Assembly (NCBI RefSeq): GCF_903946935.1
Contig: NZ_CAJAXH010000014.1
Location: 133 to 64,132 of the forward strand
Reading direction: 5' to 3'
Source of the DNA: an uncultured Thiodictyon sp.
Lineage (GTDB): Bacteria; Pseudomonadota; Gammaproteobacteria; Chromatiales; Chromatiaceae
DNA length: 64,000 nt
Translations under genes and position numbers: made by a program
The notes under the pieces: model-generated
Told to the model about the DNA's origin: nothing
The model's database searches: none
Seen by the model: only the letters and a program-made list of their open reading frames with translations
Part shown: piece after piece, positions 3,759-61,671 of the stretch
Layout of the letters: every line of letters starts with the position of its first letter
How positions within the stretch are numbered: position 1 is the stretch's first letter

Positions 3759-4121
3759 CTCACCCGGAGCCAGACGCGAAACCGCGTGCGACAGATGGGT
3801 TTTGTGAAAAAGTATGTGGCGCTGACTGCCGGATTGCAACCTCTCGCCCCTACCCCGCGAGCGGGAGCGGGAGCGGGACCTGAACGATTATCTTGTCATC
3901 GGGCAAGACCGATATCTGGATTTTCCTATGGCGGCGCCCGATTCGGCTGCTACCGCTGGATCGCCCGGACCTCCGCGCTACTTGGTCCGAGAGCAGCGAT
4001 TCGGCGCTTGCCCCTACGCCGCAAGCGGGAGAGGGGCCGAAACGGTTACGATGTGCGCCATCGTTCAGTCCGCACAGCCCCGGGGTCGCCGGCGTCGCTG
4101 TGCCACACGGGGGTTGAGGTC

Positions 4122-4958: not shown

Positions 4959-5058
4959 GGCGTGAGTGAAAATCTCCGGCGCTTCGGTTAGAGTTCCGGG
5001 CCTTCCAACAACACACCCGGCCGACACCGTCCGGGGACATCCCGGGGGACCGACTGCC

Positions 5059-5751: not shown

Positions 5752-5790
5752 TCTTCCGCCCACTCACCGCTACCCAGGAGGCGCCGCCGC

Positions 5791-6468: not shown

Positions 6469-6472
6469 TTAT

Positions 6473-6662
6473 TTGTCCGCAAATAAACGCAAATGAACGC
6501 AAATGGTCAGACCGCTAGCGGTTTCCCAGCTATCATGCGATCGACATTGTGCTGCGCCGATCATCATTCCGGCCAACAATCGACAGAACTGCAGTCCAGT
6601 CCACCTGGCATGCACCTGATCAATCGTTTTGTTTGCGTTCATTTGCGTTCATTTGCGGACAA
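6473..6662. repeat. MITE-like element with triple CGCAAAT inverted ends
   Basis: TTGTCCGCAAATAAACGCAAATGAACGCAAAT (6473-6504) is inverted against TTTGCGTTCATTTGCGTTCATTTGCGGACAA (6632-6662). Confidence 0.8.
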
Positions 6663-6803
6663 CTATTTTTCGCGGGATAACAGAATGGAGCGGTGGTTCG
6701 TGGTGTTCGATTTTGAATTGAGGGTGGCGATGGTGGGTCGGCGATGGCGACGCTGGCCTTGAATCAACCGTCGTCCGTTTGAATCCTCTTGCCGGAGCCT
6801 CCC

Positions 6804-8294
6804 ATGACCCCTGAAGTCTTTGCTGACCTGACCGCCGCAGGGCACAACCGTATCCCACTCGTCTGCGAGGTCCTGGCGGACCTCGACACCCCCTTGAGCG
6901 TTTACCTCAAGCTCGCCGCGGGCCCCTATTCCTATCTGTTTGAATCGGTACAGGGCGGCGAGAAATGGGGCCGTTATTCCATTATCGGGCTGCCCTGCCG
7001 CACCGTGTTGAAGGTCACCGGCCATGCCATCCAGGTGGAGCGCGATGGCGCGCTGATCGAGACCGCCGAGAGCGCCGATCCGCTCGCCTGGATCGATGCC
7101 TTCCAGGCGCGCTTCCGGGTCGCCACCCACCCCGGCCTGCCGCGCTTCACCGGCGGGTTGGTGGGCTATTTCGGCTATGACACCATCCGCTATATCGAGC
7201 CGCGGCTCGCCCACTGCCCCAATCCCGATCAGCAGTGTACCCCGGACATCCTGCTCCTGGTCTCGGACGAGGTGGTGGTATTCGACAATCTCAGTGGGCG
7301 GATGTATATCATCCTGCACCTGGACCCCCATGCCGGCGATACCCTGGAGTCCGGCCGCACGCGCATGCGCGAGCTGATCGGGCGCATGCAACGGGGTGCC
7401 CCGCGGCGGCCCGCGGAGGGTGAGCGCCGCGTCCACGAGGACGACTTTGTCTCCGGCTTCACCCAGCAGGGATTTGAATCGGCGGTCGAGCGGATCAAGG
7501 ACTATATCCTCGCCGGCGACTGTATGCAGGTGGTGCTGTCGCAGCGACTCTCCATCCCCTTCCTGGCCCCGCCGCTCGACCTGTATCGGGCGCTGCGCGG
7601 GCTCAACCCATCGCCCTATATGTACTTTTTGGACCTGGGCGACTTTCAGATCGTCGGCTCATCGCCCGAGATCCTGGTTCGCCTGGAGGATGGCCTGGTC
7701 ACGGTGCGTCCGATCGCTGGCACGCGGCGCCGCGGCGCCACCGAGGCCGAGGACCAGGCGCTGGAGGTCGAGCTGTTGGCCGACCCTAAGGAGTTGGCCG
7801 AGCACCTGATGCTGATCGATCTGGGGCGCAATGACGCCGGGCGCATCGCCCGCACCGGCAGCGTGCGGCTCACCGATCGCATGATCGTGGAGCGCTATTC
7901 ACACGTCATGCACATCGTCTCCAACGTCGTCGGTGAACTGAAGGAGGGGTTGAGCGCCATCGATGTACTGCGCGCCACCTTCCCCGCCGGTACCGTCTCC
8001 GGCGCCCCCAAGATCCGCGCCATGGAGATCATCGACGAACTGGAGCCGGTCAAGCGTGGGGTCTATTCCGGGGCCGTGGGTTATCTCTCGTGGAACGGCA
8101 ATATGGACACGGCCATTGCCATCCGTACCGCCGTCATCCAGGACGGCACCCTGCACATCCAGGCCGGTGCCGGGATCGTGGCCGACTCGGTGCCGCGTCT
8201 GGAATGGGACGAGACCATGAATAAGGGCCGCGCCATCTTCCGCGCCGTGGCCCTGGCCGAGGCCGGGATCGACCGCGGCGGGGTGGATTGCTGA
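6804..8294 (+). CDS. trpE: Anthranilate synthase component I
   Basis: [70 protein letters not shown]. Confidence 0.97.
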
Positions 8295-38290: not shown

Positions 38291-41147
38291 TCACGCAGCA
38301 GGCAGCAAGGCGCGGCCGAAATATTGATAGAAGGCGTCAGCGGGGTCTTCCACCAGGTTCTCCCACATACCGCGGACCTGCGCTTGGGACGGCGCCTCCG
38401 GCCGGTGGGCGCAGTGGTTACGCAGGTCCAGCATAGCGTTCAGTGCCTTGCCACGCCGTTGACGCACCTCGGACGCGCTCCGCAATAGATGCGCACCGAA
38501 GCGATTCAACAGCAGGCGCTCGATCGGGTCCACGGTCCCGGCGCCATGGTGTAAGGCCCGCTTCAAGGTGATCGCCATGGGTCCCAACATCAGGTGGTCC
38601 CGCTTGCCGTCGAGGAACGCCGCTACCTGGGCGCCCATCCGGTCTTTACCCACGTCCGTTCCCGTGCGCCAGTCCTGGCGCAGCGGCTGGAAGACCTGCT
38701 CCACCAGGGTCCGCTCGAGCGCCAACCCGAGGTTGAGCCCGGCATACCGGGACAGCCATTCATGCTCCAGACAGTGCAGCCCGCAAGCCAGGAAACGCTG
38801 CTCCTGCGCGCCCAGCACCTGGGTCCAGACCGGATCGAGCAGCGCCTGGAGCTGGAGCCGGGCCGCCGCCAGTTCGCCGTCGCACACCGCCTGGCTCGCA
38901 TCCGCCACCGCCCGGTTGAGTGCGGCGGCGATCTTCGCTTCGATGTCCTCGCGCCTGCCCGCGTCGGCGCTGGCCCAGTCCGCGGCATATTGCCTCTGGA
39001 CCTCGACCCAGGCGTGGATCAGCGCCTCGCCAAAACCCTGCCAGCGGATCGGGAGCCCCTGCACCAGGTGCGATGCCATGGTTCGGCTCAACGATTTGAG
39101 GTCTTCCCAGGCCTTGGTCCGCTCCTCCGTGCGGGCCTGGTCAGTAGCCGCGGCGTTCCACTGCTTCAGGGTCGCCAGCCGCTGCGCCGCGAAGGGTTCC
39201 CAAACGGCTTTGAGTTCAGGCTCGAGCCATTTGCGCCAGTCGTTGGTCGCCGCGAGGTCAAGTCCCCGGGCCGGGTTGCCAGCGGCATCCTCGAAGAGCC
39301 CGTTCACAAATGTGACGTCGAGCAACCTCTGCAGCGTGTCGCTGCGCCGCAAGAGGGCCTCGATGTCCATGTCCGAGGACGGCGCGAAGCCCAGGTCGAT
39401 CAGCTCCAGTTTCAGCATCAGGCCCGCCACCTTTGCGACTCGTTGGGCGATATCGGCGCGATCGGCAGCGACCGGCGCCTGCTGGACCAGCACCGCCGCG
39501 GCGCGCTGATAGCTCTCCACCGCCGCCGATGCCGCCTCGCGCCGCACCTGGAACTCGGCCAGGACGAGATAGCCAGCGGGGTCTGAGGGACAGGCCGCCA
39601 CATAGTCGCGCAGCATCGCTTCCGCCTGGGCCGGATCGCCGCGGGTCTCCAGGTCGGCGGCCTGGAGGCGGGCGGACTCGGCGGTGCCGCCGAAATAGAG
39701 TAGGCGCCAGTCGGTCAGGCGCTGCATCATAAGCACCAGCCCCGCGATCCCCTCGGCCGCCAGCCCGGTTTCAACAAGCAGCGCCATCGCCTCGCGTAGC
39801 GCCTCCTGCGCCGCCCAATGCATTGCCGTCGAGGCCGGGGCGCTCCCCGGCTCGGCCGGGTCCAGGTGCTCGCGGATGATCTCGGCGATGAACTGCGGCT
39901 GGCGGGCGGCCAGGTAATATTTGAGGGTCAGATCGAACAGCCGCTCGCGCAGACCGCGCAGGAGATGGACCCCGGCGCGCTCCAGGTCGCGCAGGCGGCC
40001 CAGGCCCTCGTGGGCCGTATCCGCGGCGCTCATGGGGTCGCCCTGCTGCGACAGTGTGATGGCCTTGTTGCCGTAGGCCTTGGCCTCGGTATCGGCGCGT
40101 TCGAGCCAGAGTTCCTCCCCGGGTCGTGCCGTGGCCAGCCCGATCGCCTCGTCACAGGCCTCCACTGCCGCCGCCAGAGTGGCCGCGGTGCCTTGGTCCG
40201 AGAGGGCATTGCCCTTGTTCATGTGGGCCATGGCCAGGCCGTTGCGGTACTCGGCCACGCCGAGGTCGAGCTCTTGCCGCAGCCGGATCGCCTCGTCATA
40301 GGCCGCCACCGCCGCCGCCAGGGTGGCCGGGGTGCCCTGGGCCTGGAGGGCATTGCCCTTGTTCATGTGGGCCATGGCCAGGTCGTTGCGGTACTGGGCC
40401 ACGCTGAGGTCGAGTCCCTGCCCCAGCCGGATCGCCTCGTCGTAGGCCCCCACCGCCGCCGCCAGGGCGGCCGGGGTGCCCTGGGTCTGGAGGGTAAGGC
40501 CCTTGTTGTAGTGGGCCATGGCTAGCAGCCTGTCGGACTTGATGGCGTAACCGATTGATTAAAAAGGAAAACGACTTTTTGGCGCAAAAGAGGAAACTCT
40601 TTGCATTCAATCGGTTGCATCACTAAGTCCGACAGCCTGCTAGGCCGTTGCGGTACTCGGCCACGCCGAGGTCGAGCTCTTGCCGCAGCCGGATCGCCTC
40701 GTCACAGGCCGCCACCGCCGCCGCCAAGGTGGCCGGGGTTCCCTGGGCCGCGAGGACAACGCCCTTGTTCATGTGGGCGTTGGCCAGGTGTTTGCGGTAC
40801 TCGACCACGCCGAGGTCGAGCCCCTGGTACAGGCGTATCGCCTCGTCATAGGCCGCCACCGCCGCCGTCAGAGCGGCCGGGGTGCCCTGGGACTGAAGGG
40901 CATTGCCCTTGTTGAAGTGAGCACTGCCCAGGTCTTTGCGGTACTCGGCCACGCCGATGTCCAGCCCCTGCCATAGCCGGATCGCCTCGTCATAGGCAGC
41001 CACCGCAGCCGCCAGGGCGGCCGGGGTCCGCTGGGCCAGGAGGGCATTGCCCTTCTCGACAAGGTCCGAGCCACGTTGAGTGGGGTCCAGCGGATTGCCC
41101 CAACTACTCGCGCTCGACACCTGCCCGAGGTTATAGCTGATGTCCAT
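38291..41147 (-). pseudogene. TPR-repeat protein with C-terminal HEPN-like domain, interrupted by a 118 bp MITE
   Basis: Six near-identical 48-aa repeats (AHMNKGNALQAQGTPATLAAAVAAYDEAIRLRQELDLGVAEYRN). Removing one CTAG plus the MITE restores a single 912-aa frame (..RNGLAMAHYNKG..). LRNHCAH (RxxxxH) lies near the C-terminus. Confidence 0.8.
40522..40643. mobile_element. 118 bp MITE with CTAG target duplication, copy A
   Basis: CTAG-CAGCCTGTCGGACTT ... AAGTCCGACAGCCTG-CTAG; AT-rich interior. Confidence 0.9.
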
Positions 41148-41443
41148 GATCCGCTCACTCAAACCGCCCCCATCGCCCCATTGCAATTGCGGCAGATTCT
41201 ACCCGCGCCCCCGGCGACGGGGAATCGCTCAGGCCCCGCGATAGACCCGCAATCCCAGGCACCGCTGCATGCCGTGGCGTTGATCATCGCCCCCGTCAGC
41301 GGCGGTCCGTCTACAACCGGAGGTCGAGGCTTCAGCCGGTGGCGGCCCCAGAGGTAGCGAAGGGAAATCAGCGGCGCTTGCACGCCGGACCGCCTAACAG
41401 CCGTGGCCACAAGACCAGTCACCCAGGACGATGAAGGTCCCCC

Positions 41444-41517
41444 GTGGGAGCGGCTTCAGCCGCGACGAGGCCGCTCTGCGGCTTGCGAGGTCGCGTCGCG
41501 GCTGAAGCCGCTCCCAC
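41444..41517. repeat. REPIN-like doublet (GTGG class REP)
   Basis: GTGGGAGCGGCTTCAGCCGCGA ... TCGCGGCTGAAGCCGCTCCCAC. Confidence 0.85.
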
Positions 41518-41666
41518 CGGGCGCCAGCCTGACTTTCTCGGAAAAGCATCGGCATCCGGTGGTGGGAACGCTGATCGCGGCAGCCCCGGTCATGGCGCCA
41601 CCCTTGCGCCTGCCGCCGCGTCGGTCTATGTTCGGCTGATCCGTTCTGCAAGATTGAAAACCGACG

Positions 41667-41954
41667 ATGCAACACTTCTCCACCCAGGATGCGGCGGCGA
41701 GTTTCGGGCAGGTGCTCGATGCCGCCTGCCGCGAGCCCGTGGCCATCGAACGCAACGGGCACCCCGTGGCGGTGCTTATGTCCAAGGGGGTCTTCGATGA
41801 GTTCGAGGCACTGAAGCTGGAGCGGCTGCGCGCCGCGGTCGACCAGGGAATCGCGGCCATCGAGCGTGGCGATTACACCGAACTCGATGAGGGCGAGCTG
41901 GCCGGTTTCGCGGACCGCATCAAGACGGCGGGGCGCCGGCGCCGACCGGAATGA
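41667..41954 (+). CDS. Phd/YefM-family antitoxin with ParD-like C-terminus
   Basis: FSTQDAAASFGQVLDAACREPVAIERNGHPVAVLMS; LRAAVDQGIAAIERGDY; ATGA overlap with the toxin. Confidence 0.88.
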   Translation: MQHFSTQDAAASFGQVLDAACREPVAIERNGHPVAVLMSKGVFDEFEALKLERLRAAVDQGIAAIERGDYTELDEGELAGFADRIKTAGRRRRPE

Positions 41955-42238
41955 ATTATCGGATCTCGTCGCAGGCCGCGAGTGACTTGGAGTCCATCTG
42001 GGATTTTACGGCGGATCGCTGGAATGCTGACCAGGCAGACCGGTATATCGATGCCTTGATGGCGCGCGTGTCCTGGCTGACCCGTAACCAAGCGCTCTGG
42101 CAGGACCGCCCGGATATCCGTTCCGGGATGTACGCCTACCCTGAGCAAAGCCACATGATCTTTTTCCGCGCGTCAGGTGCATGCATCGAAATCCTGCGGG
42201 TGCTGCATCGGCGCATGGATGTTAAACGCCATCTGTAA
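41951..42238 (+). CDS. ParE/RelE-family toxin
   Basis: YRISSQAASDLESIWDFTADRWNADQADRY...HMIFFR...IEILRVLHRRMD. Confidence 0.9.
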   Translation: MNYRISSQAASDLESIWDFTADRWNADQADRYIDALMARVSWLTRNQALWQDRPDIRSGMYAYPEQSHMIFFRASGACIEILRVLHRRMDVKRHL

Positions 42239-42249
42239 ACCCGCAAAGC

Positions 42250-43810
42250 GTGACCGGAGCGGTTCAATTGGATCAGCAGTCAGAGTCGGACACCGGCATC
42301 TATCCCTTTTCCACACTGCTCGCGGCGGACCCGGACGCGGGCGATGCGGGCGGTTACAGCATCCTGCTGGCGGGGCTGCGCCACCGCGTTCACCTGCGCC
42401 AGGCGACCCCGCTGCCTGGGCTCTACCGGCGGCAGTTGCGTAAGTTGCGGCTGGACTGGTGCCGGGACTTCACGGACCACGGATGGAACCTGCATCCTTA
42501 TCTGAACACCCCACCAGGCGATGCGTTGCCGGGGCGCTGCTTTGCGCCCGCGCATGCGCTCTGCCCGAGCGCGCATGAGGCGCTATTCGGCAAGAGCTTT
42601 CCGCGCGCGGGCGCGCCGACGACTGATGCGGACCTGGTCTATCGGCGGCTGGATGCGCGGGACCAGGGGTGCCGACACGAGGAGCCGCTGCTGCTATCGC
42701 TGGGCACCGGGGCGCATTGGCTGGGGAGCGAGTTACAGGTGGCCGTGCCGGACGGCGACGGTCCACCCGAGACCCTGGGGTTTCGGGTGGAGTGGGCGGA
42801 TCTGTGGCTGTTCCCTGACAGCCACGCGCTGCACCCGCTGTGCAATGCCGTCCTGGCCTGCAAGCTGGTGCCGACGCGGGTCACGGACCTGAGCGGCGCG
42901 ACCCGGTCCTATGGGGTGGGCGACCTGGCGCTGTTGAATCGCCTGCTGCGTGACCTGGACCACAGCGAGCGGGGCGGGGCCTGGTTGAACGCCGCCGGCG
43001 GTGGGCCGCAGGAGCACTTCTGGGGCGGGGTGCTGCGGCACTGGCTCGGGCTCACCATGGACGGGCCTCGGGTCGCCGCCGGGCCGGAAAACGTGCTGCG
43101 CCTGGAGTCCGGGGATGAGGTCTGGGCCGATCACCGCAGCCACTATGTGAAGGTATTGACCGTCGCGCGCATCGCCCCGCCGCCCGCCGACGGGGGCTTC
43201 TCCTGCCCGCGGGTGGAACCGCCGCTTGCGCCCGCGCGTATGGCCCGGGAGCAGGCCGCCGGCATCTGGTCCCCGGAGCAGTCGGCCTGCCTTCAGGCGC
43301 AGTCACTGGGCTATCCGGGCCTGGGCGAGGCGTTGCTCTACGAGCTAGCGAGTATCTCGCGTGAGGGTAGTGCGCTCGGGCTCAACGGGGACCCGTCCTG
43401 GCAGGCGAATCTGGAGTATCTGCGGGGGCAGTCCGGGGTGGCGATCTGGGAGCACTGGCGGGGGCTGGCGCTGCGCGATACCTGCGCCTTTCTCGCCTGG
43501 CATCCGCGGATGCCGATCCTGGGGCAGGCGGAGTCACGTTACTACCCGCTCTATCTCTGTGGACCAGCGCTCCAACGCCGGGCGTCAGCAGGCCATGCTG
43601 CTGGTGGCCTTGATCTATCCGGCGGGGTTTCTGTGGGACCTCAAGAAAGACCCGATCCTCAAGTATCTGGGGGCCTGGGATACCTGGTGGCTGGCGGCCG
43701 GGACTGGCGCACTGGTGGTCCTGGTCATCGCGCTCTATTTGGTGCTCGGGCCGCGCGTCAGCCGGTGGCTGGGGCGATTGGCGGATTGGGTGAGGCGGCG
43801 GGGATGGTAG
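42250..43810 (+). pseudogene. CorA-like membrane effector (large soluble domain plus 2 TM), frameshifted near 43557
   Basis: Soluble domain (LHPYL, FRVEWADLWLFPD, VLACKL, DLALLNRLLR, YYPLYL) in the 42250 frame; two hydrophobic helices (MLLVALIYPAGFLW; WWLAAGTGALVVLVIALYLVL) in the +1 frame ending at TAG 43810. Family call is by recalled resemblance, not by search. Confidence 0.55.
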
Positions 43811-43901
43811 GCCATCGGCGGGCTCGGTGCGGTGCGCCCAGCACCGGTGACACCGTGAAGACGCTGGGCAGGTATCGGTGCGGGGGCAAAGACGCTTGCG
43901 T

Positions 43902-44035
43902 CTGGGAGCGCCGACATTCTGTCGGCCAACCGCCGCAGGCGGTTCGCAGTTTCGAGGTTAATCCCATAGGGCGTTGTTTGCGCGATGACCCAACGGCGCT
44001 GCGCGCCGTGGCCGACAGAATGTCGGCGCTCCCAG
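43902..44035. repeat. REPIN/MITE-like element with 25-27 bp inverted ends
   Basis: CTGGGAGCGCCGACATTCTGTCGGC ... GCCGACAGAATGTCGGCGCTCCCAG. Confidence 0.85.
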
Positions 44036-44112
44036 GCGCCGCCTGACGGCGGTGGGGTGCCTGCGAATACCTCGCCAGTCTCAAAGCGGTGTCGCAAGCC
44101 TATGGTCCTATC

Positions 44113-45198
44113 ATGACCGATCTTCTCTATCGCTTCGTCCCCATGGGTGCGACCGCCGCGCCGGACCCGCGCCGGCTGTGGCTCGACGTGGGCAACCGCT
44201 TCGGCCCTGGTCTGATCGATCACCATCAGCCCGACGGCCCAGACCGCTGCACGGCGGCCCTGGTGCTGGAACAGGAGGCGACCATTCTGGCCCAGGCGCA
44301 GGCGCTGCCGGCGGGTGAACCGCTGGAGATCGTCACCCACCGCCAGCCGGATCTGGACGCCATCACCGCGACCTATTTTGTGGAGTCGCTGCTCCACGGG
44401 ACCCTGTCCCGCCCGGCGGCGGATCGGTGGGCGGCGGCGGTCTGCGCCGTCGACCGCGGGCATACCCGCCTGGAGCCGGACCGGCCGATTACCCCCTATG
44501 CCGTCTTTCTCGCCTGCCTGGAACTGGCGCGGCAGGACGCGGATCCGGACCCGGCCCAACCCGATGGGACCAGCCTGGCCGCGGTGCGGGCCGGCCAGCG
44601 GTTCGTCGCCTGGGTGGTCGGGCAGTTGGCGGCGGGGGTCGGGCTGGACCAGTTGGGCGCGCGGCTGGCGGCCGAGCCCGCCTGGGCGGCGCCGCTCGAC
44701 CTGGTCCGCGCGGATCAGGGGCGCTACCGGCGTGACCTGGCGCGTGCCGAGCGCCTGACGGTCGCCTTGCCGCGTGCGACGGGCGAAGGGGGCGAGCGGG
44801 TGCCGGGGCTCTGGATTGCGGCCCCCGAGTCGCTGTTGTTCAAGGCCTGGGCGCGGGGCGACCGTGCGGGTGCCGAGGACCCCCGGGGCTTCGTCTTCAC
44901 TGCGGTCGAGTTGTCGCCGACCCGGGTCATCCTGAGTGTTGCGCCCGGACTGGGGCTCTGGCTCAACGGGCTGGGCGAGGCCCTGGAGGCGGCGGAGACC
45001 GCGCAGCGGCGGCGCCTCGGCCGCCCGCGCCGGGGTGAGCCGCGCCCTGGCTATGCCGGCCCGGACCCCTGGTATGACGGCCGCTCCCCGCTGCATGGCT
45101 ATACCATCGTGGACGCACCGCACGGCGGCACCCTGCTCGCCCCGGCGCAGGTCCGGGCGGTCTTTGCGCAGTGGCTCGCCGGGGCGTCGCCGAACTGA
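44113..45198 (+). CDS. DHH-superfamily phosphoesterase, apparently circularly permuted
   Basis: LWLDVGN, IDHHQ, then VTHRQPDLDA. Confidence 0.65.
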   Translation: MTDLLYRFVPMGATAAPDPRRLWLDVGNRFGPGLIDHHQPDGPDRCTAALVLEQEATILAQAQALPAGEPLEIVTHRQPDLDAITATYFVESLLHGTLSRPAADRWAAAVCAVDRGHTRLEPDRPITPYAVFLACLELARQDADPDPAQPDGTSLAAVRAGQRFVAWVVGQLAAGVGLDQLGARLAAEPAWAAPLDLVRADQGRYRRDLARAERLTVALPRATGEGGERVPGLWIAAPESLLFKAWARGDRAGAEDPRGFVFTAVELSPTRVILSVAPGLGLWLNGLGEALEAAETAQRRRLGRPRRGEPRPGYAGPDPWYDGRSPLHGYTIVDAPHGGTLLAPAQVRAVFAQWLAGASPN

Positions 45199-45519
45199 TG
45201 GTTAAATCCCCCTGCATCAAGGTCTGCCGGCTGGACCCCGCGCTCGGCCTATGCCTCGGCTGTTTTCGCACGCGCGACGAAATCGCCGTTTGGCAGCGGG
45301 CGAGCGATGGCGTTAGGCTAGCAGGCTGTCGGACTTAGTGATGCAACCGATTGAATGCAAAGAGTTTCATCTTTTGCGCCAAAAAGTCGTTTTCCTGTTT
45401 AATCAATCGGTTACGCCATCAAGTCCGACAGGCTGCTAGGGATACTGGCCACGGTGGCCCGTCGCCGCGAGGAACACGATCCCTGGCAGGGCGATTTTCG
45501 ATGCGATTGCGAGGACTAA
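45198..45519 (+). pseudogene. DUF1289-family Fe-S/Cys-rich protein interrupted by the 118 bp MITE
   Basis: Removing the MITE gives MVKSPCIKVCRLDPALGLCLGCFRTRDEIAVWQRASDGVRLGILATVARRREEHDPWQGDFRCDCED*. Confidence 0.85.
45318..45439. mobile_element. 118 bp MITE with CTAG target duplication, copy B (inverted relative to A)
   Basis: Reverse complement matches copy A except at about 2 positions; CTAG at 45318-21 and 45436-39. Confidence 0.9.
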
Positions 45520-45717
45520 ATGAGCGATTTTGAAAAATATCCCTGTGTCGGCGTGTGTGAGGACGACCCGGTGTCCGGCTATTGCCAGGGCTGCGGCCGA
45601 CCGCCGATCGAATTTCCAGCGGAGACGCCCGAGCAGGTGCCGCCGGCAACGGCCGCCGCCGGCTCTTCACCAGTGGCGGCCACGGCCATCAAGGGCGATT
45701 GGCCGCCGCTGAACTAG
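45520..45717 (+). CDS. Second DUF1289-like small Cys-rich protein
   Basis: YPCVGVCEDDPVSGYCQGCGRP; TAAATG junction with the upstream gene. Confidence 0.65.
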   Translation: MSDFEKYPCVGVCEDDPVSGYCQGCGRPPIEFPAETPEQVPPATAAAGSSPVAATAIKGDWPPLN

Positions 45718-45727
45718 CCCGCATCGC

Positions 45728-46882
45728 TCACCGCGCCAAGGCGGTGCGCGCCAGCGTCACCCAGTAGCTGACACCGATCGGTAACACCGCGTCGTTGAAG
45801 TCGTAGTGTGGGTTGTGCAGGCCGCCGCCGTCCGGGCCGTTGCCCAGCCACACATAGCAGCCAGGTTTCACCGCCAGCATGTAGGCAAAATCCTCTCCGC
45901 CCATTGAGGGTTCGACGTCGGTCATCAGTCGCTCCTCGCCACAGACCGCTGCGGCCACCCCGCGGCAGAAGGCGCTGGCCGCCCGATCGTTGATCGTCGG
46001 CGGAAATCGCTGGTCGTAGGTGACGGCGATGTGTGCGCCCTGGGCGGCAGCGATGCCGCTGCACAGTCGCTCAATGCTCGCCTCGACCGCGGCCTGCACC
46101 TCGGCCTTGAAGGTGCGGATGGTGCCGCGCAGGATGACCTCCTCGGGGATGATGTTCCAGGCCTCGCCGGCATGGATCTGGGTGACGCTCAACACCGCCG
46201 GGTCGCAGGGATCGAGGCGCCGGCTGACGACCGTCTGTAACGCCTGCACCAATTGTGCGGCGGTCACGATCGCGTCCACGCCCTGTTGCGGCATGGCGGC
46301 GTGGCAGCCGTCGCCCTGCACCCGGATCTCGAAGGCGCAGGTGCCGGCCATCACCGGCCCCGGCAGCGCCGCCATACAGCCCACCGGGACCCCGGGCCAG
46401 TTGTGCAGCCCATAGACCGCGTCGACCGGAAAGCGCTCGAACAGGCCGTCCGCAATCATCAAGGGCGCGCCGCCGTCGGCCTCTTCGGCCGGCTGGAAGA
46501 TGAAGACGACCGTGCCGTCGAACTCGCGATGGTCCGCCAGATAGCGGGCCGCGCCGAGCAGCATGGCGGTGTGGCCGTCATGACCGCAGGCGTGCATCCG
46601 CCCGGGGTAGCGCGAGCGGTGCGCCACGGTGTTGAGTTCTGCCATCGGCAGGGCGTCCATATCGGCGCGCAGACCGATGGCGCGCGGCGATTCGCCGGCG
46701 CGCAACACGGCGACGACACCGGTTTTCGCCAGGCCGCCGTGTACTTCAAGCCCATAGGCGGTCAGCTCGCGCGCCACCACCTCGGCGGTGCGCTCTTCCG
46801 CAAAGGCCAGTTCGGGATGGGCATGCAGGTCGCGGCGCAGGGCCGTGAGTTCAGCGATGAAAGGCAGGTCGATCAAGGGCAT
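45728..46882 (-). CDS. M20D amidohydrolase (hippurate hydrolase-like)
   Basis: LHAHPELAFAE, LRADMDALP, MHACGHDGHTAMLL, FQPAEE, GGEDFAY, LHNPHYDFND. Confidence 0.92.
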   Translation of the reverse strand: MPLIDLPFIAELTALRRDLHAHPELAFAEERTAEVVARELTAYGLEVHGGLAKTGVVAVLRAGESPRAIGLRADMDALPMAELNTVAHRSRYPGRMHACGHDGHTAMLLGAARYLADHREFDGTVVFIFQPAEEADGGAPLMIADGLFERFPVDAVYGLHNWPGVPVGCMAALPGPVMAGTCAFEIRVQGDGCHAAMPQQGVDAIVTAAQLVQALQTVVSRRLDPCDPAVLSVTQIHAGEAWNIIPEEVILRGTIRTFKAEVQAAVEASIERLCSGIAAAQGAHIAVTYDQRFPPTINDRAASAFCRGVAAAVCGEERLMTDVEPSMGGEDFAYMLAVKPGCYVWLGNGPDGGGLHNPHYDFNDAVLPIGVSYWVTLARTALAR

Positions 46883-47176: not shown

Positions 47177-47731
47177 TCAGCGTTCATTGCGGTGTCTGAA
47201 TGCCCAAGGCGTTTGCTGCTCCCCCGGCCGCGACCAGATCCCCAATCGCGCCTGCCGTGCCGCCTGCTCGGCACGGTCGAAACCTGGGTCTTTGCAATAG
47301 TGACGATAGACTGCCGCCTGGCCGCTCGCCACCTGTTGCAGATTGAGCAGCGGGCGTCCCGGGCCAGTGCCGTAGACCTTCCCGACGATTCGCCCAAAGC
47401 GGTCGGTGTCGAGCGGCTCAAGTTCGACCCGGTGCGGGGCGATCGCCTCCAGGTGTCGCAGCGACCGCTTGCCCCAGGGGTCCTGTTCCCACTCCGGGGC
47501 ATCGATGCAATACAGCCGGACCTCGAGGGTCCGGCCGTTACACCGCAGTTCCAGCGAGTCCCCGTCGAAGACGCGCACCAGGGTGCAACTCAGGGGTGGC
47601 GTGTCTGCCGGCGATTCCTTGGCCCAGGGTGTCGACGCCCCCTGAGCGCCGACCAAGGTCAGGACCAAGGCGAGGCATCCGCGCCAGCGCGCGCGGGTTA
47701 GTGCGCTGTTCCGGGGGCCTGAGTTGGACAT
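47177..47731 (-). CDS. Thermonuclease (SNase-like) family protein with signal/TM segment
   Basis: VFDGDSL, VRLYCIDAPE, DRFGRIVG, ARQARLGIWS. Confidence 0.9.
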   Translation of the reverse strand: MSNSGPRNSALTRARWRGCLALVLTLVGAQGASTPWAKESPADTPPLSCTLVRVFDGDSLELRCNGRTLEVRLYCIDAPEWEQDPWGKRSLRHLEAIAPHRVELEPLDTDRFGRIVGKVYGTGPGRPLLNLQQVASGQAAVYRHYCKDPGFDRAEQAARQARLGIWSRPGEQQTPWAFRHRNER

Positions 47732-47833
47732 GGTTCGACCCTCCCGGGCCTGCTGCACCTGACGGATAAGCGCGCTACCATAACCCGCGGCACCCGCGGC
47801 GTCGCGGGCGGCCCGCTGGCCGAGACTTTTGCA

Positions 47834-47965
47834 ATGAGGCCGATCCGATGTTGGGATGACGCCACCGCCCAGGCAGCGGAAGAGACCGGGCTCTCCGATT
47901 TCCCGGATACCTGTCCCTGGGACAAGCACGAGGTGCTGGATCAAGACTGGCTGCCCGAGGAGTGA
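47834..47965 (+). pseudogene. 3' remnant of a DUF29-family gene
   Basis: WDDATAQAAEETGLSDFPDTCPWDKHEVLDQDWLPEE* matches the typical DUF29 C-terminus; no N-terminal part. Confidence 0.6.
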
Positions 47966-48002
47966 CTGGCGCGTCTTACCTTGCAAGTCAGCCCGGCACC
48001 CG

Positions 48003-48124
48003 GTGGGAGCGGCTTCAGCCGCGACGCGATCTCACAAGCTGCCGTGGCCTCGTCGCGGCTGAAGCCGCTCCCACGGGGGGACTTTCATCGTTCGCTGCCG
48101 TAGGAGCGGCCCCCAGGCCGCGAC
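48003..48124. repeat. REPIN-like doublet plus GTAG-class REP
   Basis: GTGGGAGCGGCTTCAGCCGCGA...TCGCGGCTGAAGCCGCTCCCAC (48003-48074); CGTAGGAGCGGCCCCCAGGCCGCGAC (48099-48124), identical to 38120-38145. Confidence 0.85.
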
Positions 48125-48178
48125 CGGTTGCACGAGGGCGCGGGGCCGCAGCGACGACCAAGGACAAACCGGGCCGAC

Positions 48179-49414
48179 TTATCGGATAACCCCTTGGGTG
48201 CGCGCGGCGCGCAGCCATTGCGGAAACTCCGCAAGCAAACGGTCATAGAGTTGCTCATCGGTCAGGTCGTGGAGATCGTCGATGGCAAAAAATCCGCAGT
48301 TGTCGACCAACCGACCGGGCATGGTGTCCAGCCGTTCCAGCGCGCCATAGTTGCGCCCGCCAAGCCCCATGAATTGCCAGAAGATCGGGTAGCGGGCGGC
48401 CTCGATCGTCAGCTCGACGATTTCTTTGTTCCGATGAATCCCGCCGTCGGTCACGAACAGCACATAGGCCGGCGGTGCATCCGGCGTGGCGCGGTAGTGG
48501 TCGATCGCCAGACGCATGACCTTGGGTTCGTCGTTGGCGCCACCGTACCAGGCCCGCCAGCCGCCCCCGGCCGTTTCGGTATAGCCGGCAATGTTGTGGA
48601 CGGTCGCCGGCGGCAGGGTCTTGGGGGTATCGTCGAAGGCCCAGACATCCAGTGCGCCGTCATCGTCGAAGTGCAGGGCCAGGGGCAGGGCGCGGTCCAG
48701 CAGTTCTTGGACCCGCCCGGTCTTGTATTGCCGGTTCATCGAGCGGCTGGCATCCAGGACCACACCGACTCGGGCCAGGGTCTCCTGCAAGCCCTGCTTT
48801 TTCAGACTGATGGTCGCTTGTTTAGCGAGGTCGATCAGCTGCGGTGCGTCTTTTTCGAGGCGCTTTTCCAAAGACAGTCGGGGCGGCGGCAAGGGCGGGG
48901 CCGCGGCCACCTCGCCGCCGAAGTGCCGCACCAGTGCGTCCATGCCGCCGTTGAAACCGGCGCCGGTGGCCGCGACTCGCCAGGCCCCGCCCTTGCGGTA
49001 GAGTTCGATCAGCATCAGTGCCCGCTCCTGCGCGAAGTCATCCCCGGTGAACGCAAAGACCGCACGCCGTTCGCCGGCCGCGAGCGCCACCTGACCGCTC
49101 ACCAAGGTACTCATGGTGCCTGGCCCGTCGATGGCGGCGACGAACACCAGCCGCTCGATCATGTCGGGTAGCCGGTCGAGCGCGAGGTCGAATCCAGCCG
49201 CGGCACCCGCGGCATTGGCGATCCGCACGCCGCCGCAGGGGGTCGCTGGCTGGTTGAAGAAGACCAGGTAGCGGTCGTCCGAGAGTTGGCTGTTGGCGTC
49301 GAGACCGAAACACGAGACATCGACCGCCACGCCCCGCAGATCGATCTCGATCCGCAAGGTGGTCGAGCCGATCAACTCCGCGAGGGACAGGCGTTGGCCG
49401 CGGGCAAGCTGCAT
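48179..49414 (-). CDS. TerD-domain plus vWA-domain protein (TerF-like)
   Basis: VDVSCFGLDA...DDRYLVFFNQ, ELYRKGGAWRV.A.GAGFNGG; vWA VVLDASRSM, LFVTDGG, IFWQFMGLG. Confidence 0.85.
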   Translation of the reverse strand: MQLARGQRLSLAELIGSTTLRIEIDLRGVAVDVSCFGLDANSQLSDDRYLVFFNQPATPCGGVRIANAAGAAAGFDLALDRLPDMIERLVFVAAIDGPGTMSTLVSGQVALAAGERRAVFAFTGDDFAQERALMLIELYRKGGAWRVAATGAGFNGGMDALVRHFGGEVAAAPPLPPPRLSLEKRLEKDAPQLIDLAKQATISLKKQGLQETLARVGVVLDASRSMNRQYKTGRVQELLDRALPLALHFDDDGALDVWAFDDTPKTLPPATVHNIAGYTETAGGGWRAWYGGANDEPKVMRLAIDHYRATPDAPPAYVLFVTDGGIHRNKEIVELTIEAARYPIFWQFMGLGGRNYGALERLDTMPGRLVDNCGFFAIDDLHDLTDEQLYDRLLAEFPQWLRAARTQGVIR

Positions 49415-49550
49415 AATGAACCTCATTCTTGGGGCCGGATGTCATGCCCAGGCAGGGCTTGAGGAAACGTCGCGCTATCTCTAACATGGCTGGGGCGACG
49501 GCGCCGCCGCTTGCATATTAACGACTATTCGACCAATAGGGAGGTATTTC

Positions 49551-58152: not shown

Positions 58153-59928
58153 ATGTTTCATTTTCTTTACGAACTGAGCCAATGCCTGCCGGAGCGGGCG
58201 GCCTGGGAACGCCTCAACGAAGGCATGCCCGCCAACTACGACCGCGGACTGGCGTTGTGCTTCGGCCCGGGGGGCGAGTGGTGCGCAGTCAAGACCTACA
58301 GCGGCAACCAAGGCGTGGTCTACCGCTCCGGGCCGCCCAATGGCACCGATTTCACCCCCTGCTGCAAACTGGCAGGCAACACCGCCAACCGCTTGGCCGC
58401 AAGCGTCAAGGAACTCGCCGACCATCCCAGCCTGCCGGGCGAAAAGCGCCAGTGGCTGGTCGACAGTCTCACCTGCTTCAACGACGCGCAAGCGGCGATC
58501 TGGGCCGAGGTTGAGACGGCACAAAAGGCGGCCGGCATCGACGGCAAGGAGCATCGCGGCTATGTCTACTGGGCCGATGACCAGATGCAGTCGGTGTATG
58601 CCTGGCCGGAAGTTCAGTCCTTTCTGGTCGAGCGGGCCTTGTCCGCCTTTGCCGACAAGGGCGGGGAGCGGGCGAGCGGCAGTTGTGCGGTTTGCGGTCG
58701 CTCGGCGGTCAAGGTCTTTGGCAACTATGCCGTCGTGGCCTGCTACAACCTTAATAATCCTGGCGCCATCGCCGGCGGCTTCCAGGCCGGCAAGGCGCAT
58801 CGCAATTTCCCCGTGTGCGGCGACTGCGCCCTGTCCATCGCCGAGACCTTCACCTTCGCCGAGACCTACCTGTCCAGCAGCATGGCCGGGCAGAGCTATC
58901 TGGTTCTGCCCTACAGCAACAACCCAGAGGTACGCGAAGAGCTGCGCGCCCGTCTGGGTCAGCGTCCCGATCGCTATCAATTGGGCAAGGCCCGCGATCT
59001 ACTCGCCGATGAACTGGCCCTGACGGAAGAATTTGCCGGTGTGGGCGATCAACTCGCCTTCGCGTTGATCTTTTTCAAACAACAAAACGCGGCCTGGCGC
59101 GTACAGGCCGAGGTGCAACAATTGCTGCCCAGCCGTCTGCACCTGTTGCATCGCGCCGGCCGGACCATTGCCAATGCCCTCGACTTGACGGCCGAGAGCA
59201 AGACCGACAGCAAGCCGGTCCAGATCAACGCCATGACCTTCAAAAACTTCTCCAGCGCCAGTGACAAGGCCAGTGAGGATACCCTGCGCGGCTGGCTGGC
59301 GGCCCTGTTTGATGGGCAGACAGTGAACCCGAGCCATTTTCTGCACTGCCTGGTCGGCAAATTGCTCAGTACCGGCAAGCGTGAGCCCAAGTTTTTGCAC
59401 TGGATGACGCTCCAGGCCTGGGGCCTCTACCGCTATGCCCGATTGACCAAACTCATCGTCCCCGCCCCCGTGATGGAGCATCGCGCCATGTCCGAAGTCA
59501 TCCCCAATAGCCCCTATGGGCGCTATACCCAGGAGCACGCCGATTTCTTTCGCCGCCCGGAATTGGTCGTGGCCTTTCTGACCGGCTGCTATGCCTCGCA
59601 GGTGGCCTCGGTACAGCGGCAGGTCCGCGGCGCCGATCCATTCACCAAGAAATTCATCGGCCGGCTGCTGGGTCGCCCGCAGTTGCAACGACTCTACCGC
59701 GAAGGTCACGGCAAGCTGGCCCAATACGGCAAGCTTGGCTATGTCATCACCGGACTCGACCCGGACCTGGCCAATGCCTGGGTGGCCTGTGGCGAGGATT
59801 GGGCCATCGGCGATGAAGAGACAACCTTTGCCTTTACGATCGGTTATAGCCTGGCCTACCGGATCGGACAGCTCGATAAGGCCGCTACCGGCGTCACTGA
59901 AGCGGCACCCACAGACCTCCATGATTGA
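58153..59928 (+). CDS. cas8b: CRISPR-associated Cas8b (TM1802/Csh1-like), type I-B large subunit
   Basis: First gene of a cas7-cas5-cas3 operon; zinc ribbon CAVCG...FPVCGDCA; helical C-terminus with FAFTIGY. Confidence 0.75.
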   Translation: MFHFLYELSQCLPERAAWERLNEGMPANYDRGLALCFGPGGEWCAVKTYSGNQGVVYRSGPPNGTDFTPCCKLAGNTANRLAASVKELADHPSLPGEKRQWLVDSLTCFNDAQAAIWAEVETAQKAAGIDGKEHRGYVYWADDQMQSVYAWPEVQSFLVERALSAFADKGGERASGSCAVCGRSAVKVFGNYAVVACYNLNNPGAIAGGFQAGKAHRNFPVCGDCALSIAETFTFAETYLSSSMAGQSYLVLPYSNNPEVREELRARLGQRPDRYQLGKARDLLADELALTEEFAGVGDQLAFALIFFKQQNAAWRVQAEVQQLLPSRLHLLHRAGRTIANALDLTAESKTDSKPVQINAMTFKNFSSASDKASEDTLRGWLAALFDGQTVNPSHFLHCLVGKLLSTGKREPKFLHWMTLQAWGLYRYARLTKLIVPAPVMEHRAMSEVIPNSPYGRYTQEHADFFRRPELVVAFLTGCYASQVASVQRQVRGADPFTKKFIGRLLGRPQLQRLYREGHGKLAQYGKLGYVITGLDPDLANAWVACGEDWAIGDEETTFAFTIGYSLAYRIGQLDKAATGVTEAAPTDLHD

Positions 59929-59965
59929 CCGTCGCGACGTTCAACAATTCTTCAGGAGCACACCC

Positions 59966-60952
59966 ATGACCGCGATCACCAGCCGCTACGAAATTCTCTT
60001 CATCTACGAGGCCAAGGACTGCAACCCCAATGGCGACCCACTCGATGAGAACCGCCCGCGTACCGATCCCGAGACCGGCGAGGCGACCATCAGCGATGTG
60101 CGCATCAAGCGCACCGTGCGCGATTGGTTCCTGAGCCTGGAGCCGGATGTCGAACAGCGCCTGGCCGCTGGCCGTGAGGTATTGATTCGCGACACCCTCA
60201 AGGCCGACGGATTTCTGTCAGAGGGCAAGGACCGCGCCGAGCAGTTTTTGGCCGAGGCCGCCAAGGGCAAGAAGGGCGAGGCCAAGCGTCAGGCCCTGGA
60301 GGCCGCGGTCTTGCGCGGTTGTATCGATGCGCGCCTGTTCGGCGCCACCCTGCCGCTCGGCAAGAACGAGCCCTCGCTGCAACTGACCGGGCCGGTGCAG
60401 TTCTCCGCCTTCAACCGCTCACTGCATCGCGTCAGCCCGACCCTGGTGCAGCAGACCGCCGCCTACGCGGGCAGCGACAAGGGCAACCAAAAATCGTTCG
60501 CCGAACGCTGGCTGTTGCCCTACGCACTGGTCGCCGCCTACGGGGTGGCCAACGAAACCGCCGCGCAGACCACCGGACTCAGCGAGGCCGACCTCGACCT
60601 GCTGCTGCAAGGTCTATGGCGCGGCACCGCGGCGCTCAACACCCATTCTAAGATCGGCCATGACCCGCTGCTCCTGGTGGTGGCTCAGTATCGCCCCGGC
60701 TACCGGCTGGGCGCCCTGCCGCGCCGCATCAGTCTCGCCAACCAGGGCGTCGAAGACACCGCCCTGCGCTCGACCCGCGATTTTTGTCTGGAGGTCGGCG
60801 AGCTGTTGAGCGCCCTGCACCACTATCCGCAACTGACCGGCCTGCGGGTGATGCAAGACCCGCGTCTGCGCTGCCAATCCGGCGCTCAGGCCGGACTCTT
60901 TGCCGAGTTGGCCGCAGCGGCAGGATTGCCGGTCACCGCCTTGGAACTGTAG
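59966..60952 (+). CDS. cas7: CRISPR-associated Cas7 (Csh2/Csd2 family)
   Basis: YEAKDCNPNGDPLDENRPR, SDVRIKRTVRD, IDARLFGA, TGPVQF; AGGAG RBS upstream. Confidence 0.93.
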   Translation: MTAITSRYEILFIYEAKDCNPNGDPLDENRPRTDPETGEATISDVRIKRTVRDWFLSLEPDVEQRLAAGREVLIRDTLKADGFLSEGKDRAEQFLAEAAKGKKGEAKRQALEAAVLRGCIDARLFGATLPLGKNEPSLQLTGPVQFSAFNRSLHRVSPTLVQQTAAYAGSDKGNQKSFAERWLLPYALVAAYGVANETAAQTTGLSEADLDLLLQGLWRGTAALNTHSKIGHDPLLLVVAQYRPGYRLGALPRRISLANQGVEDTALRSTRDFCLEVGELLSALHHYPQLTGLRVMQDPRLRCQSGAQAGLFAELAAAAGLPVTALEL

Positions 60953-60954
60953 CC

Positions 60955-61671
60955 ATGCGGACCCTGGTCTTCGACATCGCCGGCGAATACGGCCAGTTCA
61001 AAAAGCCCTATTCGCCGATGAGCCCCGTGAGTTACCCGCTGCCGCCGCCACCGGCGGTATTGGGAATGCTCGGCGCCGTGCTCGGCTACCGCAAGGACAT
61101 CTATCACCAGCAACTGGGCTGGGACCGGTTACGCATCGCCGTGGGGCTGCGCGCCCCGCTGCGGGTCTTCCGGGCGGCGCTCAATCTGTTGCAAACCAAG
61201 GACGGCACCGATGGCTTTTTCCGCCCGCGCGCCGGTCAGAACACCCACACCCAAGTCCCCTTCGAGTTTCTGCACCATCCGCACTTTCGCATCTATGTCG
61301 CCGGGCTGGCCGACCCAGTGGCCGATGAACTGGGAGAGCGGCTGCGCACCGGCCGTAGTGCCTACACCGTCGCGCTGGGGCTCGCGCCCTGTCTCGCCGA
61401 TCTGACCTGGATCGGGGAGTGGCCGGCCCAACCCCTGGCCGATCCCCAATGGCAGACCATTACGGCGGTGCCGCTGCGCGACGGTATTCAGGTGCATTAT
61501 GAGGACCGCCGACGCTACCACCGGCTGCGGGTTCCCGCCGCCATGGACGGCGAACGCATCGTGCATCGCTATCAGGAAATCGTACTGGCCGAAGACGGAC
61601 AACCGATCCGCGGCCAGGGTGGAACCGGAGTCTTACATGCCATCGGCCCCGACCGCGTCGCTTTTCTCTAA
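60955..61671 (+). CDS. cas5: CRISPR-associated Cas5 (Cas5h-like)
   Basis: LVFDIAGEYGQFKKPYS, YPLPPPPAVLGMLGAVLG, LGLAPCLA. Confidence 0.9.
   Translation: MRTLVFDIAGEYGQFKKPYSPMSPVSYPLPPPPAVLGMLGAVLGYRKDIYHQQLGWDRLRIAVGLRAPLRVFRAALNLLQTKDGTDGFFRPRAGQNTHTQVPFEFLHHPHFRIYVAGLADPVADELGERLRTGRSAYTVALGLAPCLADLTWIGEWPAQPLADPQWQTITAVPLRDGIQVHYEDRRRYHRLRVPAAMDGERIVHRYQEIVLAEDGQPIRGQGGTGVLHAIGPDRVAFL

Follow-up and report, generated by a model that had tools for sequence, protein, structure and literature searches.

The question raised by the locus at positions 41667-45717 of a 64,000-nucleotide stretch of DNA from an uncultured Thiodictyon sp. (contig NZ_CAJAXH010000014.1; the whole stretch is called the window below) is whether it encodes a new signalling system or the remains of a known one. 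A sequence-only reading had taken its genes for an operon in which a phd-parE toxin-antitoxin (TA) pair was wired to a CorA-like membrane protein and a DHH phosphoesterase, followed by two DUF1289 proteins, and had proposed an undescribed stand-alone system resembling the effector and signal-degrading enzyme of type III CRISPR (short palindromic repeats, clustered and regularly interspaced) loci. The results described here lead to a different answer: the locus is most probably a decaying relic of a type III CRISPR accessory module, made up of a CorA-like effector and a DHH-type phosphodiesterase. Coordinates are positions in the 64-kb window unless another locus is named, and the window contig was matched to the precomputed Pfam calls of an identical contig.

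The list of open reading frames (ORFs) placed six in this segment, all on the + strand as expected from the earlier reading, and most of the tight junctions on which the idea of an operon had been based were found: phd and parE overlap by ATGA, the parE stop (42238) is followed after 11 nt by a GTG at 42250, and a TGATG at 45196-45200 is shared by the stop codon of the DHH-like gene and the start codon of the first DUF1289 ORF. A TAAATG that had been listed with them does not couple two genes, as a 125-bp hairpin (45314-45439) stands between the two DUF1289 ORFs. The GTG at 42250 opens an ORF of 598 codons (42250-44046), thought to encode one protein with a large soluble domain and two transmembrane (TM) helices. 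Both parts exist, but not as a single ORF: three-frame translation showed that the two hydrophobic helices (at about 43592-43636 and 43691-43747, with a hydropathy peak of 2.55 over the second) are out of frame with the N-terminal 436 residues, and the protein read from 42250-44046 had no match in Pfam, NCBIfam, PADLOC or PDB sequences. When mapped on its closest intact relative, a protein of 609 aa (P0034), the window gene fell into a 5' part for the N-terminal cytoplasmic (sensor) domain and a 3' part, in a different frame, for the end of the stalk and the two helices (Table 1). P0034 residues 444-516 (73 residues, including the signature FRNQFWF..FQG) have no counterpart in the window, and by blastn 17 bp stand in place of about 262 bp of a Thiodictyon-like ortholog (locus L002), so that about 245 bp net are missing and the frame is shifted. 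Since frame 1 matches the intact relatives only up to 43557, the remainder of the long ORF (43558-44046) is out-of-frame read-through. In intact P0034 the PADLOC CorA matches span residues 378-581 or so, including the segment deleted in the window, which accounts for the missing PADLOC match of the window copy.

The break is not an assembly accident, as the independent assembly of another sample (L008) is 100% identical to the window over 40500-46000, with no gaps; the identical miscalled ORF, of 592 aa, is present in three further sample records. The suspicion in the earlier reading that this CorA copy was broken was therefore correct: the loss of 73 stalk residues and of the frame leaves no way of linking the sensor domain to the pore. 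The window corA is a pseudogene and its effector is dead. Downstream, about 302 nt separate the end of the corA remnant (43810) from the DHH-like gene (44113), whereas intact relatives have them overlapping or at most 161 nt apart. This gap contains an inverted repeat resembling a repetitive extragenic palindromic (REP) element, which differs from the hairpins upstream of phd.

The family to which the pseudogene belongs is small. A phmmer search over 1.84 billion cluster representatives returned only 48 relatives, mostly of 550-650 aa (best E value 3e-133), and the 5' part of the window gene shares 29% identity with a protein of Candidatus (Ca.) Parabeggiatoa. Two PADLOC models of CRISPR 'CorA-like' proteins, PDLC01043 and PDLC01174, matched 40 of 40 and 39 of 40 intact relatives, respectively (best E values 4e-18 and 4e-23); the Pfam CorA family (PF01544) matched only one of 31 members, and weakly (E 8e-4). 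Sequence and profile searches of the family against PDB sequences gave nothing useful. For alignment with the CorA-1 clade of Bacteroides fragilis, eight sequences were rebuilt from Supplementary Fig. 10 in Chi et al. (2023), taken as text with its errors of optical character recognition (OCR). By hhalign the two families matched with 96% probability (E 2.7e-9) over the stalk and the first TM helix, where the common signature reads FRNQ(F/Y)WF.E.T..FQG.EV in the family studied here and IRFVNQIYFREVTAQDQGIELY in the CorA-1 clade; a PADLOC-typical CorA paralog encoded in L002 was matched with 90% probability in the stalk region only. The N-terminal domains of the family and of the SAM-AMP (S-adenosyl methionine-AMP)-binding clade, compared with the same OCR-rebuilt sequences, did not align significantly (E 0.07, probability 0.8%). 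This non-significant alignment is co-linear, and in it the near-invariant NRxLR of the family falls on R152/R153 of B. fragilis.

An AlphaFold2 (AF2) model of P0034 built from a 40-sequence alignment (predicted local distance difference test score, pLDDT, 88.9; predicted TM-score, pTM, 0.87) had an N-terminal half of mixed alpha/beta structure and, after it, long helices at residues 430-461, 508-563 and 568-606. The protein is thus modelled with a CorA-like fold, in which a large N-terminal domain in the cytoplasm is joined by long stalk helices to two TM helices at the C-terminus. In a Foldseek search of the PDB the top match of this model was Thermotoga maritima CorA (8tmc; E 0.012, probability 0.85), with CmaX (7nh9) and Campylobacter jejuni CorA further down the list, all with weak E values and TM-scores. 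The profile and fold comparisons that the earlier reading had suggested for this protein therefore support a CorA fold, and its analogy with CorA-like/NrN pairs is sustained by the PADLOC, hhalign and Foldseek results together with the conserved DHH-like partner described below. We conclude that the window gene derives from a divergent clade of predicted CRISPR-associated CorA-like effectors, which by alignment has the stalk and pore module in common with the known ones and a sensor domain that is not detectably related.

The partner gene (Table 1) appears intact; an alternative in-frame GTG start at 44089 would give a protein of 369 aa, and the ATG at 44113 was preferred. In an index of 5.8 billion proteins it had 33 relatives, none with a Pfam domain and all named ones called 'hypothetical'; the closest named source was an uncultured Thiodictyon (70% identity), others being Ca. 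Parabeggiatoa and Thiotrichaceae. Scored directly, the window protein reached 17.2 bits with the Pfam DHH model (PF01368), below the cut-off of 28.1, and 24 of 32 family members matched it weakly (best E 3.8e-4). The family alignment showed H84, D88, D90 and D122 to be invariant and D33, D44, H45 and H46 to be present in at least 90% of the members, with FKAWARGD, PDPWYDGR and TIVDAP as further motifs; the window protein retains every one of these residues and motifs. Its AF2 model (pLDDT 95.2) matched best, among PDB structures searched with Foldseek, the catalytic domain of GdpP (5xt3 and 5xsp; E 0.06-0.1, TM-score about 0.2 over some 300 columns). In BFVD unnamed giant-virus proteins (1.5e-4) ranked ahead of the best named matches, which were to a phage 'exopolyphosphatase' at E 0.019 and to a DHH phosphohydrolase at E 0.55. 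A search of PDB sequences with the family profile again gave a marginal match to GdpP, in which HxxPDLDA falls on GdpP motif I and, more weakly, LD..N...IDHH is aligned to LVLDEN..VIDHHRR (motifs II/III). The DHH segment is thus N-terminal to the DxD segment (II/III before I), the opposite of the canonical order. A crude in-silico re-ordering of the segments in 10 members gave no gain in the Pfam DHH score (17.4 against 17.2 bits), so that a circular permutation is unproven. Taken together, several weak but concordant lines and the genomic context make a DHH-type metal-dependent phosphoesterase the best reading of the predicted partner; the identity proposed for it earlier is kept, although the Pfam hit itself is below threshold.

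More distant DHH-like domains (24-40% identity) were found fused to other modules (loci L033, L035, L036, L038-L041, L044-L047, L049-L054, L056, L058, L059, L063-L066, L069, L071, L072, L080 and L086), and several of these adjoin giant P-loop (STAND-like) WD40 proteins. The N-terminal partners are soluble extensions of 320-1090 aa. The C-terminal ones are regions of about 950 aa in which 6-8 TM helices are predicted, regions of about 400 aa with 2 TM helices, among which one had a match to a CorA hidden Markov model (HMM), and soluble tails of about 180 aa. The putative 'eraser' domain is a mobile module, with at least four other kinds of fusion partner, proteins with 6-8 TM helices included.

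The co-occurrence of the two genes was then followed in about 100 loci, collected by contig look-ups and a metagenome scan, in which gene order was read with local HMMs; the flanks covered 2-10 kb, and cas genes were detected there with a few seed sequences and precomputed Pfam calls. In the genome collection the sole relative was a contig of Ca. Parabeggiatoa with an intact pair of 564 and 351 aa, overlapping by ATGA. The adjacency assumed in the earlier reading was general: wherever upstream DNA is retained in a close-family locus, the gene immediately preceding the DHH-like one is corA. In addition, P0087 (969 aa) is a fusion of the two, and in L086 a DHH-like domain is followed by a CorA-type C-terminus. 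In five lineages the pair is found beside cas10/RAMP genes, cas1/cas2 (linked to a reverse transcriptase, RT, in three) and/or CRISPR arrays. In L004/L005 the pair is accompanied by ClpP, a HerA/TrwB-like ATPase, Cas10 (PADLOC 8.6e-65) and RAMPs, and L006 carries a RAMP, Cas10, RT-Cas1, Cas2, a 21-repeat array and corA. L002 has the PADLOC-typical corA paralog (4499-6073, 524 aa, PDLC01175 1e-27) in tandem with the corA of the clade studied here (6137-7960, 607 aa), then the DHH-like gene, a 20-repeat array, cas2, cas1 and an RT gene. L029 has RT-Cas1 fragments, a 24-repeat array and the pair, and L098 has cas2, a degenerate array and the pair. Because these relatives adjoin cas10/RAMP genes, cas1-cas2 and CRISPR arrays, the pair is a known type III accessory module and not an undescribed kind of system. 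Searches of plasmids (by tblastn) and of viral contigs found no relatives and thus gave no sign of a mobile-element or anti-CRISPR origin.

Several further observations were made in these loci. A HerA/TrwB-like ATPase is encoded beside the pair in both L004 (3432-6679) and L002 (746-3247), the two being 35% identical, and in L004 the ATPase and a ClpP-family protease are located between the DHH-like gene and cas10. The CRISPR repeats of L002 (9579-10922), L006 (8195-9676) and L098 (about 1900-2400) have one end in common, GCTGTTGAAAC or its complement, which would fit a single repeat and Cas6 family that moves together with the module. In the Parabeggiatoa-like loci L013 (4128-4733) and L017 (11111-11737) the pair is followed by a Cas-associated PD-(D/E)xK protein (PADLOC PDLC01472, 2e-50), with no other cas gene visible in the flanks.

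The TA pair upstream of corA passes both Pfam thresholds (Table 1), and the ParE match is nearly full length (positions 1-88 of 89 of PF05016). Of the roughly 100 loci, only the window, its identical counterpart L008 and loci of the L010 type (L010-12 and L026-27; about 80% DNA identity to the window) have phd and parE beside the corA/DHH-like pair. The association being confined to the window lineage and this sister lineage, phd-parE is a neighbour of the pair and is not wired to it, contrary to what had been proposed; tabulation of the neighbours of intact homologs, as called for in the sequence-only reading, brought out type III genes in five lineages and no TA link.

The sister lineage also indicates how the module is being lost. 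In L010-12 phd-parE is intact, the corA gene lacks the equivalent of window positions 42592-43630, which is most of the sensor domain, and the DHH-like gene lacks 44443-44682 (240 bp, 80 codons including that of D122). Between the window and L010 the ratio of nonsynonymous to synonymous substitution rates (dN/dS) was 0.17 for phd, 0.15 for parE, 0.21 for the 5' part of the DHH-like gene and 0.34 for the 5' part of corA. By this measure phd-parE is clearly under selection, and, as divergence of the module genes took place mostly under constraint, their inactivation would be comparatively recent. Thus the TA neighbour appears to stay under selection while the CorA/DHH-like module decays, and the locus can be taken as a clear example of the decay of an accessory module after its separation from Cas10, with loss of the effector preceding that of the eraser.

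By analogy with B. fragilis, the intact relatives would work as follows. A Cas10/Cmr complex would recognise foreign RNA and make a nucleotide signal, which in B. fragilis is SAM-AMP; the signal would bind the large cytoplasmic N-terminal domain of the CorA-like protein, and the long stalk helices would pass it on to the two-TM pore. The pore would then be opened or perturbed, compromising the membrane and stopping the infected cell, and the adjacent DHH-like enzyme would hydrolyse the signal. For the family studied here we infer the ligand (SAM-AMP), channel opening and the substrate of the enzyme from that system. In the window the DHH-like enzyme might be an orphan signal degrader, or simply the next to decay, as in the sister lineage. 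The phd-parE pair came to lie beside the module in an ancestor common to both lineages; it is outside the signalling pathway, and its likely role is to stabilise the island.

A number of findings weigh against this reading. About two thirds of the close-family loci have no cas gene or array in the available DNA (L003, L013/L017, L014, L015, L019, L021, L024, L073, L096 and L097 are such loci). The N-terminal domain has no detectable similarity to that of the SAM-AMP-binding clade, and its ligand may differ; the GMN motif of CorA-1 is missing from the family, which has P..FLW in its place. The DHH assignment is weak by each measure (Pfam 17 bits against 28; Foldseek E 0.06). Finally, the window contains no cas10, RAMP gene, cyclase or CD-NTase, as judged from its scanned long ORFs and from the precomputed Pfam calls of the identical contig, which agrees with the earlier reading; this result covers the window alone, and a type III system elsewhere in the genome is neither shown nor excluded.

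An alternative that we regard as unlikely would have the CorA/DHH-like clade also act independently of CRISPR, as part of another defence system in which a neighbouring repeat protein, or else a caspase or STAND protein, is the sensor or a second effector. It seems equally doubtful that the window and its sister lineage hold the wreck of such a three-gene system, kept in place by the TA pair, or that the clade answers a messenger other than SAM-AMP. The repeat protein is a TPR protein with a C-terminal RNxCAH (HEPN-like Rx4H) motif (Table 1). Its gene is split in the window by the left copy of the hairpin element into 38291-40519 (742 aa) and 40623-41186 (187 aa); it is unsplit in L010 (4558-7146, 862 aa), and in L014 a full-length homolog (3626-6856; 33% identity, 1e-76 to 1e-90) lies on the same strand, 20 nt downstream of the nrn-like gene. 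This makes it a possible third partner of the pair. However, a link to full-length TPR/HEPN-like homologs (window, L010 and L014) amounts to only two independent lineages, and the HEPN call is one of motif alone: the protein had no Pfam match beyond TPR and no PDB match, a PDB profile search of its C-terminus was uninformative, and jackhmmer found no link between this C-terminus and the N-termini of the STAND-WD40 neighbours of the distant DHH-like genes. Other arrangements that fit the alternative are those of L096 (corA, nrn-like gene, a 314-aa gene and a 967-aa TPR gene) and L097 (corA, nrn-like gene, a Peptidase_C14 (caspase) gene and a P-loop protein), as do the fusions of distant DHH-like domains to other membrane or soluble modules, and their occurrence beside STAND-WD40 giants. 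Against these, defence genes cluster in islands whatever their function. Around ten lineages lack cas genes in their short flanks, but short contigs may hide such genes, and no signal-making enzyme was identified.

The interpretation offered by the sequence-only reading, that of a functional stand-alone module in which phd-parE would be co-regulated with a nucleotide-gated membrane effector and its eraser, the trigger being an unknown messenger or a signal produced elsewhere, is now very improbable. It could draw on the lack of cas10 or a cyclase in the window, on the shared strand and the 11-nt gap between parE and corA, on the retention of the TA-corA-nrn arrangement in the sister lineage, and on the many relatives without cas genes in their visible flanks. 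For the window it is largely refuted by the deletion, which has removed 73 core residues and shifted the frame of corA, and the sister lineage is still more eroded; the TA pair is missing from all other loci, and five lineages carry the family within type III loci. The last alternative, that the break is an assembly artefact or a tolerated split whose products still work (the 436-aa soluble sensor domain as a signal sponge, for example, and the DHH-like enzyme as a house-keeping nanoRNase), has very little to recommend it: the frame-1 ORF is open for 598 codons, the dN/dS of the 5' part of corA is not neutral and the DHH-like gene is intact, but a 245-bp deletion is atypical of sequencing error and is identical in an independent assembly, pairwise dN/dS mostly reflects the time before inactivation, removal of the TM domain abolished immunity in B. 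fragilis (PMC10600005), and the L010 lineage has deleted most of the sensor domain. The decaying type III accessory module thus remains the preferred reading of the locus.

Table 1. Features in and around the corA/DHH-like locus (positions in the window).
Feature	Position	Strand	Evidence
TPR protein gene, C-terminal RNxCAH (HEPN-like Rx4H) motif	38291..41186	-	homologs in L010, L014
phd/yefM-family antitoxin gene, 95 aa, intact	41667..41954	+	Pfam PF02604 PhdYeFM 37.3 bits (cut-off 29.8); NCBIfam TIGR01552
parE toxin gene, 95 aa, intact	41951..42238	+	Pfam PF05016 63.9 bits (cut-off 23)
pseudo-corA 5' part, frame 1: predicted N-terminal cytoplasmic (sensor) domain	42250..43557	+	52% identity to P0034 residues 12-443
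deletion/frameshift junction	43555..43571	+	blastn against L002, protein mapping, family alignment
pseudo-corA 3' part, different frame: stalk end and two hydrophobic helices	43574..43810	+	42% identity to P0034 residues 517-609
REP-like inverted repeat in the gap between corA and the DHH-like gene	43898..44039		repeat search; 31-nt arms, 97% complementary
nrn-like gene, predicted divergent DHH-type phosphoesterase, 361 aa, apparently intact	44113..45198	+	family alignment, AF2, Foldseek, weak Pfam
DUF1289 ORF, 46 aa, 3' end runs into hairpin element	45198..45338	+	Pfam PF06945 58.3 bits (cut-off 27)
hairpin element resembling a miniature inverted-repeat transposable element, 125 bp	45314..45439		repeat search, blastn; inverted second copy 40522-40643
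Cys-rich ORF, 65 aa, DUF1289-like	45520..45717	+	Pfam PF06945 24.3 bits, below cut-off 27

Of the two DUF1289 proteins in the earlier reading, the first was recovered and the second scored below the Pfam cut-off (Table 1). The first ORF was seen only in loci of the window's own strain and the second was absent from other loci; near 45178, still within the DHH-like gene, the window ceases to be homologous to L002 and L010. Both DUF1289 ORFs are local neighbours of the module, not parts of it. The idea that they are halves of one gene split by the hairpin element was rejected, since each has an N-terminal Cys motif.

The 125-bp hairpin element itself is present in just two copies in the window, inverted with respect to each other and bracketing the TA/corA/nrn region. 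A copy with 99% identity is found in the Thiodictyon-like locus L002 (12845-12970), between cas1 and the RT gene, where coding DNA is only about 70% identical, which suggests that the element has been mobile recently and is common to these bacteria. Neither copy is present in sister lineage L010, which has the same gene arrangement without them; the inverted elements were therefore rejected as the ends of a composite mobile unit. A search of 40000-46500 against Rfam gave only sub-threshold hairpin matches, and the element corresponds to no known RNA. A 462-aa antisense ORF (43735-45123) was taken as an artefact of high G+C content; conserved antisense ORFs mirror the conserved sense genes. Upstream of phd, REP-like palindromes (GGGAGCGGCTTCAGCCGCGAC-type hairpins) occupy 41440-41521, and sequence similar to them yields REP-like ORF translations near 48000.

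Elsewhere in the window, cas genes of type I were found (cas8b(TM1802)-cas7-cas5 at 58153-61671, 12 kb from the module), called type I-B in the earlier reading, with no CRISPR array within 52-64 kb. With these, other defence or stress genes form a set at 107-3513, 3786-4958, 47177-49426 and 58153-61671: type I restriction-modification genes (HsdS and an HsdR_N/N6_Mtase protein), TerB-DnaJ, an SNase-like nuclease, TerD/vWA-TerF and cas8b-cas7-cas5. The other ORFs scanned in the window have housekeeping or other functions and include tig, clpP, clpX, lon, surA, lptD, a resistance-nodulation-division pump, an M20 peptidase, TerD and pgi.

Modules of this type have been catalogued since 2018 and their mechanism described since 2023, and with its effector gene dead the window copy by itself matters little. 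What the analysis defines is a CorA/DHH-like clade in Chromatiaceae-like and Beggiatoa-like gammaproteobacteria, all members of which, when looked up, bore the NCBI name 'hypothetical protein', and neither of whose proteins is recognised by Pfam. CorA clades appear to have the stalk and the first TM helix, with FRNQxWF..QG, in common, their sensor domains having diverged beyond recognition. This divergence bears on whether different CorA clades read different messengers, raised as an open question in PMC11229360. The residual interest of the family lies in its unrecognised N-terminal domain, the odd order of the DHH motifs, the many fusion partners of the DHH-like domain and the pairs without cas genes.

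Compared with known systems, the phd-parE pair is an ordinary Phd/YefM-ParE type II toxin-antitoxin system, with both Pfam thresholds passed, two proteins of 95 aa, an ATGA overlap and signs of purifying selection, except for its association with the CorA pair, which is limited to one clade. The canonical CorA Mg2+ channel (PF01544; T. maritima CorA, 8tmc) is the top structural match of the modelled CorA-like protein and likewise has two C-terminal TM helices after long helices, but the family falls below the PF01544 threshold, has no GMN, gives low TM-scores and has a much larger and different N-terminal domain. In a similar way the DHH/DHHA1 phosphodiesterases GdpP, NrnA and PggH resemble the DHH-like family in a two-domain model and in the HxxPDxDA and LD...DHH motifs that align to GdpP; the family differs from them in motif order and sub-threshold scores, and no DHHA1 GGGH motif was identified in it.

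The closest functional parallel is the type III-B system of B. fragilis, in which the SAM-AMP produced by Cas10 is bound by CorA and broken down hydrolytically by NrN (Chi et al., 2023, PMC10600005). There too the CorA protein has a large cytoplasmic N-terminal domain, a C-terminal stalk and a two-TM module, and is encoded next to, or fused with, a DHH-type enzyme for which GdpP is the nearest structural neighbour, as reported for B. fragilis NrN (PMC10600005); relatives of the window family are likewise found beside cas10/RAMP genes, RT-cas1, cas2 and CRISPR arrays. The family differs in its N-terminal domain, which is not detectably homologous, and in the missing GMN motif; its DHH-like partner differs from NrN in being sub-threshold in Pfam and in having the DHH motif N-terminal to DxD; and the window copy differs from the B. 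fragilis module in being a pseudogene with no type III genes within 64 kb. The nearest match in gene organisation is provided by the corA genes adjacent or fused to a DHH nuclease (NrN) that were reported in type III-B loci by Shmakov et al. (2018, 10.1101/270033), with a fusion in Beggiatoa sp. PS (EDN71418.1), which may belong to this exact clade, as an example. Although the window locus is degraded and not adjacent to CRISPR, the pairs described there and the family studied here are equal in architecture, the fusion P0087 included, and in taxonomic neighbourhood (Ca. Parabeggiatoa, Thiotrichaceae and Thiodictyon).

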